From Escherichia phage vB_Eco_F27, in the sequence record OP870146.1: DNA of 64,000 bases. The stretch is one strand, 5' to 3'. The notes under the pieces were generated by a model, which was given only the letters and a program-made list of their open reading frames with translations, made no database searches and was not told the DNA's origin. Both the position numbers and the translations under genes were made by a program. Every line of letters starts with the position of its first letter. The first letter of the stretch is position 1. Of this stretch, positions 42,120-43,029 are shown piece by piece.

Positions 42120-42414
42120 TGTCGGGGTTTCCACCTACTAAGGCAAGTGTTTGTACGAAACGCCGGGATTCGAACCCGGTTATTGAGTAGTTGACGCTAC
42201 TCAATATTTTTAAAAGGCCATATCTCGACCATATCCGAACGTTCCGTCAAAAACGCTACTCGGCTTACGGCAAAGATATTTCCTCGAATCGATAATTCGG
42301 TGCGCCGTTTCTGCTGTGATGTAAGGGGATATTAACAAATCGTAAAGATTTATTAAGACCAGTCCTTACTCAGGGAACATCAGTCCGACGACTTACCGGT
42401 AGCGACCCGGCTTC
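42120..42414 (-). ncRNA. candidate structured stable RNA region (tRNA-like T-arm, no full cloverleaf found)
   Basis: No plausible ORF; contains ACCGGGTTCGAATCCCGG (T-arm-like) and a 9-bp hairpin ATTGAGTAG/CTACTCAAT. By position could correspond to T4 stable RNA species. Confidence 0.3.
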
Positions 42415-42759
42415 TTATTTTGGCATATCATCAATTTGCTCTCGACGCCGACGCCATAGATTAATCGCTTCATAAACACATTCTGCGTTTGGTATATGAC
42501 GGCAATAATATAATGATTCGCGTTTCTGGAATCGATGTTGCAATGGGATTTCGTTTAAAAGGTCTTTACGGTCAAAGTATTCAAAACTAGTTAACCCGGA
42601 ACGGTTTTTAATGAACTTCCAATGACCAAATTCATTTTGAACATAGATGTAATCTGCATGTTGGTATAACAAATTAATCAATCGGTCTGAAATAACTGTA
42701 TCATGTTCGTTAAAATAAAACGTTAAATCATGAACTACTAAGTAAACATTACCTTTCAT
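42415..42759 (-). CDS. hypothetical protein inside the tRNA region
   Basis: 114 aa from the ATG at 42759 (MKGNVYLVVHDL...) after GAGGAAAA. Confidence 0.5.
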   Translation of the reverse strand: MKGNVYLVVHDLTFYFNEHDTVISDRLINLLYQHADYIYVQNEFGHWKFIKNRSGLTSFEYFDRKDLLNEIPLQHRFQKRESLYYCRHIPNAECVYEAINLWRRRREQIDDMPK

Positions 42760-42777
42760 ATTTTCCTCACTTAAAAT

Positions 42778-42854
42778 TGGTCGAGACAGAAGGATTCTAA
42801 CCTTCAACCTACGGATTAGAAGTCCGTTGCTCTATACAATTGAGCTATGCCTCG
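42778..42854 (-). tRNA. tRNA-Arg (anticodon UCU)
   Basis: Hand-folded cloverleaf: acceptor CGAGGCA/TGTCTCG, D-arm GCTC..GAGC, anticodon stem ACGGA/TCCGT with loop CTTCTAA, T-arm GAAGG-TTAGAAT-CCTTC, encoded CCA. Confidence 0.75.
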
Positions 42855-42954
42855 ATGATGCGGCTTTGGGTGTTTCAGTGTTACTCGTTTGTAGGTTCTA
42901 CTTTTAACCCTTATTCGAACAACTTACCTACCTAAGAGCGTACTCACCGCGAAT

Positions 42955-43029
42955 TGGTGGCCCTGGCTGGTTTCGATCCAGCTACCTATCAGTTATGAGC
43001 TGACAGCTCTCCCATTGAGCTACAGGGCC
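42955..43029 (-). tRNA. tRNA with CAU anticodon (Ile2-type or Met)
   Basis: Hand-folded: acceptor GGCCCTG/CAGGGCC, D-arm GCTC-AATGGGA-GAGC, anticodon stem GTCAG/CTGAT with loop CTCATAA, T-arm GCTGG-ATCGAAA-CCAGC, encoded CCA. Confidence 0.75.

Follow-up and report, generated by a model that had tools for sequence, protein, structure and literature searches.

We analysed a stretch without long open reading frames (ORFs) at 42120-42414, next to the transfer RNA (tRNA) genes of Escherichia phage vB_Eco_F27 (sequence record OP870146.1), in the 64,000-nucleotide (nt) piece of DNA that we call the window. The locus is composed of two tRNA genes, an ORF of 114 amino acids (aa), two adjacent RNA segments, a trailer hairpin and an intrinsic terminator, all on the minus strand. 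As judged by sequence comparison, the two RNA segments, which together occupy 42154-42418, are the Mosigvirus orthologues of T4 rnaD and rnaC, the last two products of the tRNA operon. The longest ORF within 42120-42414 in the ORF list encodes 47 aa, bearing out the description of the stretch as ORF-free in an earlier note, which was made from the letters of this DNA.

Sequence comparison identifies the source of the window as a Mosigvirus, that is, an RB69-like T-even phage. Across 1.1 kb around the locus, the window is 98.8-98.9% identical to phages FL31 and vB_EcoM_G2469 (hereafter G2469), the latter classified as Mosigvirus mar005p1, and the best full-length matches to the locus are Mosigvirus phages. 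A similarity search finds conserved counterparts of the ORF-free stretch in about 800 phage records. Over the matching DNA, the records of T4, T4T, and RB9 annotate rnaD and rnaC, and that of GiZh annotates rnaC only. The T4 record describes rnaD as "small, stable RNA; species 2 RNA" of 119 nt, starting 1 nt past tRNA-Arg, and rnaC as "species 1 RNA" of 139 nt, starting 6 nt past rnaD.

The coordinates of both RNAs were mapped by aligning the window to the T4 annotation. The rnaC orthologue (42154-42292, 139 nt) aligns end to end with AF158101 70908-71046 and scores 167.9 bits with our rnaC covariance model R1. The rnaD orthologue (42299-42418, about 120 nt; also supported by its fold and its homologues) aligns with AF158101 71053-71171, and the spacer between rnaD and rnaC is 6 nt in both phages. 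The RNA core of the stretch is 93% identical to T4 rnaD plus rnaC. The block from rnaD through rnaC to the terminator is about 90% identical to T4, compared with 76-80% for the flanking protein genes. The order rnaD, rnaC, trailer, and terminator, downstream of tRNA-Arg, is common to T4 and the phage of the window. Like its T4 counterpart, to which it is about 95% identical over 139 nt, rnaC of the window lies after rnaD and before the trailer and terminator and has the same predicted fold; it differs by point substitutions only, whereas the upstream context is different, with two tRNAs and the 114-aa ORF here and eight tRNAs and segB in T4.

In T4, RNAC and RNAD are classed as late RNAs and have been validated by Northern blotting (PMC9697503). 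The T4 species 1 RNA, about 140 nt long and cut from the operon transcript, is reported to accumulate in discrete, stable form (PMC2330249, PMC9697503). The proposal in the earlier note that the stretch encodes a processed stable RNA was thus correct in kind: the stretch is orthologous to RNAs that are annotated as stable and blot-validated in T4. The note proposed one structured element, and there are actually two RNAs, both already described and annotated in T4, where they have been known since the 1970s. Taken as a whole, with the identity of the RNAs, the operon, the structures of rnaC and rnaD, and the roles of the tRNAs, we consider this explanation the best one, with a probability of about 90%. 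The finding belongs to known entities, namely T4 rnaC/rnaD and the RB69-type tRNA complement, and therefore the feature is already known. The stretch is ordinary, because it is a copy of known T4 stable RNAs that close a two-tRNA operon, and the apparent mystery of a non-coding stretch, being the long-known rnaD/rnaC pair, carries little weight as a genome feature.

A comparison of homologues strongly supports a predicted four-way junction for rnaC, in which an acceptor-like stem stacks on a T arm and two further arms are added. The 5' strand of the acceptor-like stem (CGAUUCG, 42285-42291) pairs with the 3' strand (CGUUUCG, 42156-42162), as indicated by covariation in helix 1, and the homologue alignment places a tail, U-A-C-A (42152-42155), directly after the 3' strand. 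Arm I (42215-42284, about 60 nt; helices 2 and 3, and the folds of divergent homologues) takes the position of the D arm, with an apical loop UUGACG (42245-42250) and an unpaired GG (42218-42219). Arm II (42181-42206; helix 4) has a 6-nt loop, CGUCAA (42191-42196), and corresponds to the hairpin of the earlier note; the hairpin is real, and its stem is 10 base pairs (bp), not 9 bp. The T arm (42163-42179; helix 5) reads CCGGG-UUCGAAU-CCCGG on the minus strand and is the motif reported earlier as GGTTCGAATCC, which was read correctly. The statement that the stretch contains no complete cloverleaf holds for a canonical tRNA. It does not hold in the wider sense, since the T arm is part of a non-canonical 139-nt four-way junction that resembles a cloverleaf.

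The rnaC segment folds with z = -4.95, and none of 200 shuffled sequences folds as well. Covariation was assessed in 21 distinct homologues from at least nine phage lineages (alignment A4). In these sequences, 91.0% of cells of the four-way fold are paired, compared with 39-47% when the partners are slid. Changes on both sides are found in 29 of the 49 pairs, and none of 500 shuffles reaches the observed values. In the acceptor-like stem, an A-U pair is replaced by G-C in 13 sequences. The T4-type stem has 7 bp including two U.U mismatches; the Yersinia phages have U-A and C-G in their place, and PM2, where all seven pairs are standard, has U-A at both. Arm II has double-sided changes in 7 of its 10 pairs, and the T arm is 100% paired with two covarying pairs. 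Six of the seven divergent homologues fold alone into the same architecture in single-sequence predictions. The single-stranded AAAAU linker of rnaC is invariant. An alternative acceptor pairing within rnaC, ACGGAACG with CGUUUCGU, hinted at by a weak tRNA-Sec match, was rejected: it is broken in the Yersinia phages, and it is the pairing of the 5' and 3' ends that covaries. The same 9-mer, GAGUAGCGU, occurs in both arms of T4-type rnaC (42229-42265 and 42191-42204, minus strand). It is absent in Melville-type homologues and therefore is probably not functional.

The residues that follow the acceptor-like stem are conserved as well. All 21 homologues have U73, C75, and A76. The lineage of Klebsiella phage kv_tblp5 and PM2 encode U-CCA, and most others, including the window, encode U-ACA. 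The T4 annotation ends rnaC at A74. The annotated 3' end of rnaC may be 2 nt short, or the extra bases may serve processing only.

The arm I loop (UUGACG) and the arm II loop (CGUCAA) are perfectly complementary, and the complementarity ends at the stems. Across the homologues, 99.2% of loop-loop cells are paired, compared with 17-50% when the loops are slid. Compensatory changes have occurred twice independently: the Klebsiella-phage lineage has UUGGCG/CGCCAA, and the Yersinia phages have UUGAUG/CAUCAA. Mixed combinations of these loops lose most of the duplex energy. From these sequences, it is most likely that the two loops kiss, within one molecule or between two. In addition, the unpaired GG by the junction tracks positions 55 and 56 of the T loop in the tRNA register: a G.U pair is replaced by C-G in four sequences, and a G-C pair is invariant. 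This covariation is suggestive of a tRNA-like elbow.

The predicted rnaC fold is thus similar to a canonical tRNA in its top half. In both, an acceptor stem of 7 bp stacks coaxially on a T arm of 5 bp with a 7-nt loop (UUCGAAU in rnaC); other shared features are a GG covarying with position 55 of the T loop, the tail U73-N-C-A, and a location among clustered tRNA genes. The remainder is different. rnaC has neither a D arm, in place of which stands the long arm I, nor a variable region. Its third arm has a stem of 10 bp and a 6-nt loop and no anticodon loop, in contrast to the 5-bp stem and 7-nt loop of a tRNA. The window rnaC encodes U-A-C-A rather than CCA and carries the two U.U mismatches in its acceptor. 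rnaC is not called by ARAGORN or by the Rfam tRNA model, and matches only tRNA-Sec, at 18.5 bits and E = 2.2. A tRNA top half on a non-decoding RNA is also found in transfer-messenger RNA (tmRNA) and in bacterial Y RNA (YrlA). ARAGORN finds no tmRNA, there is no Rfam match to tmRNA or Y RNA, and no search was made for a tag reading frame. YrlA carries its tRNA-like module internally and has a Ro-binding stem at its ends, whereas rnaC has the acceptor stem there. None of the 4227 Rfam 15 models matches rnaC or rnaD at the gathering threshold; only the two tRNAs pass.

Homologues of rnaC are found in Tequatro-, Mosig-, Teguna-, Winkler-, Kanagawa-, Gelderland-, Moon-, and Mosugukvirus and in a Klebsiella phage. 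The sources include Kc304 (Winklervirus), fHe-Yen9-01 (Tegunavirus), Melville (Gelderlandvirus), NM4.3 (Moonvirus), PM2 (Mosugukvirus), Q7622 and Kosakonia 305 (Kanagawavirus), Klebsiella phage kv_tblp5, and IMG/VR contigs. Most of these genera have rnaC within the tRNA cluster, where only an AAUAA-type spacer separates it from the 3' end of the preceding tRNA. The JS98 locus is cleanly without rnaC and keeps rnaD, the trailer hairpin, and the terminator (595-840 of the JS98 locus stretch); it looks like the loss or gain of a tRNA-sized cassette. Scans of IMG/VR for rnaC give no lineages beyond those already seen. A loop-agnostic rnaC pattern that needs exact matches at the conserved bases retrieves 49 loci from metagenomes, none of them a true rnaC by model R1. 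The same pattern retrieves 31 loci from 185,579 bacterial and archaeal genomes, again with no true rnaC, so that no host or prophage homologue is detected by this exact-match pattern. In the locus of Kosakonia phage Kc304, about 160 unannotated nt (~445-605) lie between tRNA-Ile and rnaC and end with a T-arm-like hairpin followed by AGCTCCC-A-CCA. Standing where T4 has rnaD, they could encode a further tRNA-like RNA or a tRNA of unusual form.

The rnaD segment folds with z = -2.75 relative to shuffled sequences. In the predicted fold, a small 5' hairpin (CCGG..CCGG) is followed by a long rod, invariant at its base and variable at its apex. Eight pairs with double-sided changes keep their pairing among 12 distinct homologues. 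Compared with T4 rnaD, the 5' hairpin and the basal stem, both invariant, the length, and the place just upstream of rnaC are the same. The apical third differs, and so does the start, which coincides here with the stop of the 114-aa ORF and lies 1-6 nt after tRNA-Arg in T4 and JS98. Unlike in T4 and in JS98, where rnaD comes directly after tRNA-Arg, rnaD does not directly follow tRNA-Arg in the window. At least three versions of the apical third (~42325-42372, minus strand), unrelated in sequence, are found on the invariant base, like an exchangeable module.

We infer the layout of the operon from its anatomy and from T4. A putative T4-type middle promoter, identified by eye, comprises a MotA-box-like element TTTGCTTTA (43110-43118), a 12-nt spacer, and TATTAT (43092-43097) on the minus strand. 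This element lies in DNA with homology to the stretch immediately preceding the tRNA cluster of T4, where a T4 middle promoter has been placed (PMC2330249). The sigma-70 promoter scan that we used does not cover MotA promoters. At the other end, a trailer hairpin (42115-42145), evident from alignment and folding, lies between rnaC and the terminator; it is conserved in T4 and JS98 and is outside the annotated RNAs. The terminator itself (42082-42111), a GC-rich hairpin with a U tract, is supported by its fold, and the G2469 and PhAPEC2 records annotate it as well. Owing to mismatches in its stem, this minus-strand terminator escaped the sigma-70 promoter and terminator scan. Transcription in T4 is presumed to cross the whole tRNA cluster and to end after the species I RNA gene (PMC2330249).

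In the window, a single transcript would run from the middle-type promoter near 43092-43118 to the terminator at 42082-42111. It would comprise, in order, the tRNA with a CAU anticodon, a 100-nt spacer, tRNA-Arg(UCU), the 114-aa ORF, rnaD, rnaC, and the trailer hairpin. Host tRNA-maturation enzymes would release the tRNAs, rnaD, and rnaC. The acceptor-like stem, the T arm, and the UNCA tail of rnaC are features that ribonuclease P (RNase P) and 3' trimming enzymes would be expected to recognise. With its tRNA top half, rnaC would be a substrate of these enzymes, and stable.

The function or biological role of rnaC and rnaD was termed unknown in 2010, 2022, and 2025 (PMC3014915, PMC9697503, PMC12685909). 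The literature that we searched, which lacked the papers of the 1970s-80s on the sequence and processing of species 1 RNA, contains neither a function nor a comparative structure for the two RNAs. Our best guess, offered tentatively and more probably wrong than right, has rnaC mimic a tRNA without decoding and occupy a host or phage factor that recognises the acceptor, T arm, or elbow. Somewhat more probable, and still short of an even chance, is the possibility that rnaC founds an uncatalogued RNA family across the tRNA clusters of the Tevenvirinae. Its members would mimic the tRNA top half, with acceptor, T arm, elbow, and UNCA tail, and would have in place of the lower half two arms held together by a covarying loop-loop kiss of 6 bp, making a purpose-built, non-decoding decoy or scaffold.

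Four other explanations of the stretch can be considered. The first is that rnaD, rnaC, and the trailer are essentially cis-acting processing punctuation, protecting the upstream tRNAs and mRNA and ordering their maturation, with the stable RNAs as by-products that do nothing in trans. Placement last in the operon, right ahead of the terminator, would suit this role, as would the clean absence of rnaC from the JS98 locus and the fact that rnaC bears exactly the features that recruit tRNA-processing enzymes. However, rnaC is mid-cluster and not 3'-terminal in Winkler-, Gelderland-, and Mosugukvirus, and punctuation alone needs no invariant loops, no loop-loop covariation, and no long arm I. We therefore regard this explanation as improbable.

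It is also rather improbable that rnaC, rnaD, or both are regulatory small RNAs that base-pair with host or phage mRNAs. Both have been termed small regulatory RNAs (PMC9697503, PMC12685909), and a convergent single-nucleotide polymorphism (SNP) in rnaD has been reported in adaptation to ECOR34 (PMC12685909). The invariance of the single-stranded AAAAU linker would likewise be in line with such pairing. Yet no target is known, the most conserved loops of rnaC pair mutually, and the apex of rnaD, its most exposed part, is its least conserved part.

The third explanation, raised in the earlier note as a degenerate tRNA, is that the stretch is a functionless pseudogene, one or more decaying tRNA genes from a larger T4-like cluster. 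The canonical T arm with an acceptor-like stem would be expected of such a remnant, the Rfam tRNA-Sec match, although weak (18.5 bits, E = 2.2), points in the same direction, and model R1 weakly cross-matches true tRNAs. The tRNA content of these loci is in flux, with a spacer in place of tRNA-Asn and two tRNAs here for the eight of T4. The non-tRNA parts are nevertheless kept in at least nine lineages, with 29 covarying pairs and covarying loops; the block outconserves the neighbouring genes in comparison with T4, and T4 makes discrete stable RNAs from it (PMC9697503). Because of the covariation, the proposal is already largely refuted, and we consider it very unlikely. Finally, that the stretch codes for small proteins, for example from the 42-aa ORF at 42210-42338 equivalent to G2469_00144, can be dismissed for practical purposes: "hypothetical protein" coding sequences (CDSs) lie over the stretch in many records and ORFs of 34-47 aa are present, but the short ORFs have TTG starts, the rnaD/rnaC boundary falls within the 42-aa ORF, the substitutions are compensatory at the RNA level, and the curated T4 annotation has RNAs and no CDS.

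Several points weigh against the orthology-based reading, that is, an rnaD/rnaC pair processed from the operon with a tRNA-like, kissing-arm rnaC. The expression and processing of rnaD and rnaC in the phage of the window are transferred wholly from T4. The involvement of RNase P would likewise be carried over from T4, for which processing of the species 2-species 1 precursor by this enzyme is reported in the literature of the 1970s-80s. The 114-aa ORF parts tRNA-Arg from rnaD, and therefore the 5' end of rnaD cannot be made as in T4 and must form differently. Since the JS98 locus is without rnaC, at least one lineage can dispense with this RNA. In Winkler- and Kanagawavirus, rnaC has a non-canonical T loop, and the loops of PM2 form only four Watson-Crick pairs and one G.U. 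Two independent compensatory events, and no more, underlie the loop-loop pairing; the elbow pair has one or two. An intramolecular kiss would need a sharp bend in arm I, and the decoy function of rnaC is a guess.

Both RNAs are outside Rfam and are more conserved relative to T4 than the genes that flank them. The covariation-backed fold of rnaC, a tRNA top half with kissing arms, and its distribution may be new. If the fold is undescribed, swaps of the loops and of the elbow would give a concrete, mutable handle on the role of the T4 species 1 RNA, and the comparative fold suggests direct experiments. For rnaD, a convergent SNP arose as a T4-like phage adapted to host ECOR34, and this mutation hints at a host-specific role (PMC12685909). 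There is a consequence for annotation as well. Many GenBank records of T4-like genomes put "hypothetical protein" CDSs over rnaC/rnaD (for example G2469_00144; window 42210-42338, minus strand), and few carry RNA features. These CDSs are wrongly placed and constitute a systematic misannotation.

The ORF between tRNA-Arg and rnaD (42415-42759, minus strand) encodes 114 aa, starting with ATG behind a GAGG Shine-Dalgarno sequence. Its position between the tRNAs and the stable-RNA stretch, and its uncharacterised status, are as the earlier note had them. The same junction is 1 nt in T4. At its stop codon, the ORF overlaps rnaD, as judged by the mapped 5' end of the RNA. The protein belongs to the RB69ORF150c family: its counterpart in PhAPEC2 is annotated as similar to RB69ORF150c, and its PHROG match is phrog_3355 (1e-50), of unknown function. 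No Pfam family is assigned, the best being a sub-threshold match to DUF2654 (E = 0.059, 14 bits against a cut-off of 25). An AlphaFold (AF2) model (predicted local distance difference test, pLDDT, 70; predicted template modelling score, pTM, 0.62) has no significant fold match in the PDB, the best template modelling (TM) score being 0.31. Close homologues number only seven.

The two tRNA genes lie further upstream. The tRNA with a CAU anticodon (42955-43029, minus strand) is called "Met"(cat) by ARAGORN and scores 62.4 bits with the Rfam tRNA model. The tRNA-Arg (42778-42854, minus strand; ARAGORN, tct; 71.1 bits) has the anticodon UCU and reads AGA. ARAGORN finds no third tRNA across the 64-kb window, and no other Rfam family reaches threshold within 41500-43700, in agreement with the two tRNAs counted in the earlier note. 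The numbers of tRNA genes are 2 in RB69, 8 in T4, 3 in JS98, and 0 in RB49 (PMC2993671, Table 2), and the eight tRNAs of T4 cited in the note as a comparison are correct. Because RB69 is listed with two tRNA genes, the two-tRNA set is the known RB69-type state; the count behind the "minimal tRNA set" of the note is right, and the property had already been reported (PMC2993671, Table 2). The window thus has the same number of tRNA genes as the RB69-type complement, and the same two genes are annotated in G2469.

From its sequence, the CAU tRNA is probably an AUA-reading tRNA-Ile of the lysidine type, orthologous to T4 tRNA-Ile, and not tRNA-Met. The T4 tRNA-Ile gene has CAT as well, and ARAGORN labels the T4 gene Met too. 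The two share the 5' half GGCCCTGTAGCTCAATGG and the acceptor, and the closest E. coli matches of the CAU tRNA are annotated as tRNA-Ile. The pair G1-C72 rules out an initiator tRNA. Labelling of this probable tRNA-Ile as tRNA-Met(CAT) recurs in many phage records. In the window ORFs of at least 120 aa, AGA is used 8.2 times and AUA 12.0 times per 1000 codons. Both values are several-fold above E. coli usage. The heavy use of AGA and AUA fits codon supplementation, in which the two tRNAs would supply the decoding of codons that the phage of the window uses heavily.

The two tRNAs are separated by a spacer of 100 nt (42855-42954, minus strand), delimited by alignment. It fills the slot of tRNA-Asn in PhAPEC2 and JS98, is unrelated to it in sequence, and is also present in G2469; PhAPEC2, a relative, differs in keeping a third tRNA where the spacer lies here. 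Neither a tRNA (ARAGORN) nor an Rfam match is found in the spacer, and there is no fold signal (z = 0.02). A degenerate tRNA-Asn was considered for it and rejected, as there is no convincing alignment and no fold signal. In T2L, the tRNA-Asn gene is the preferred site of the SegB homing endonuclease (PMC2330249), and therefore the slot may be a recombination scar.

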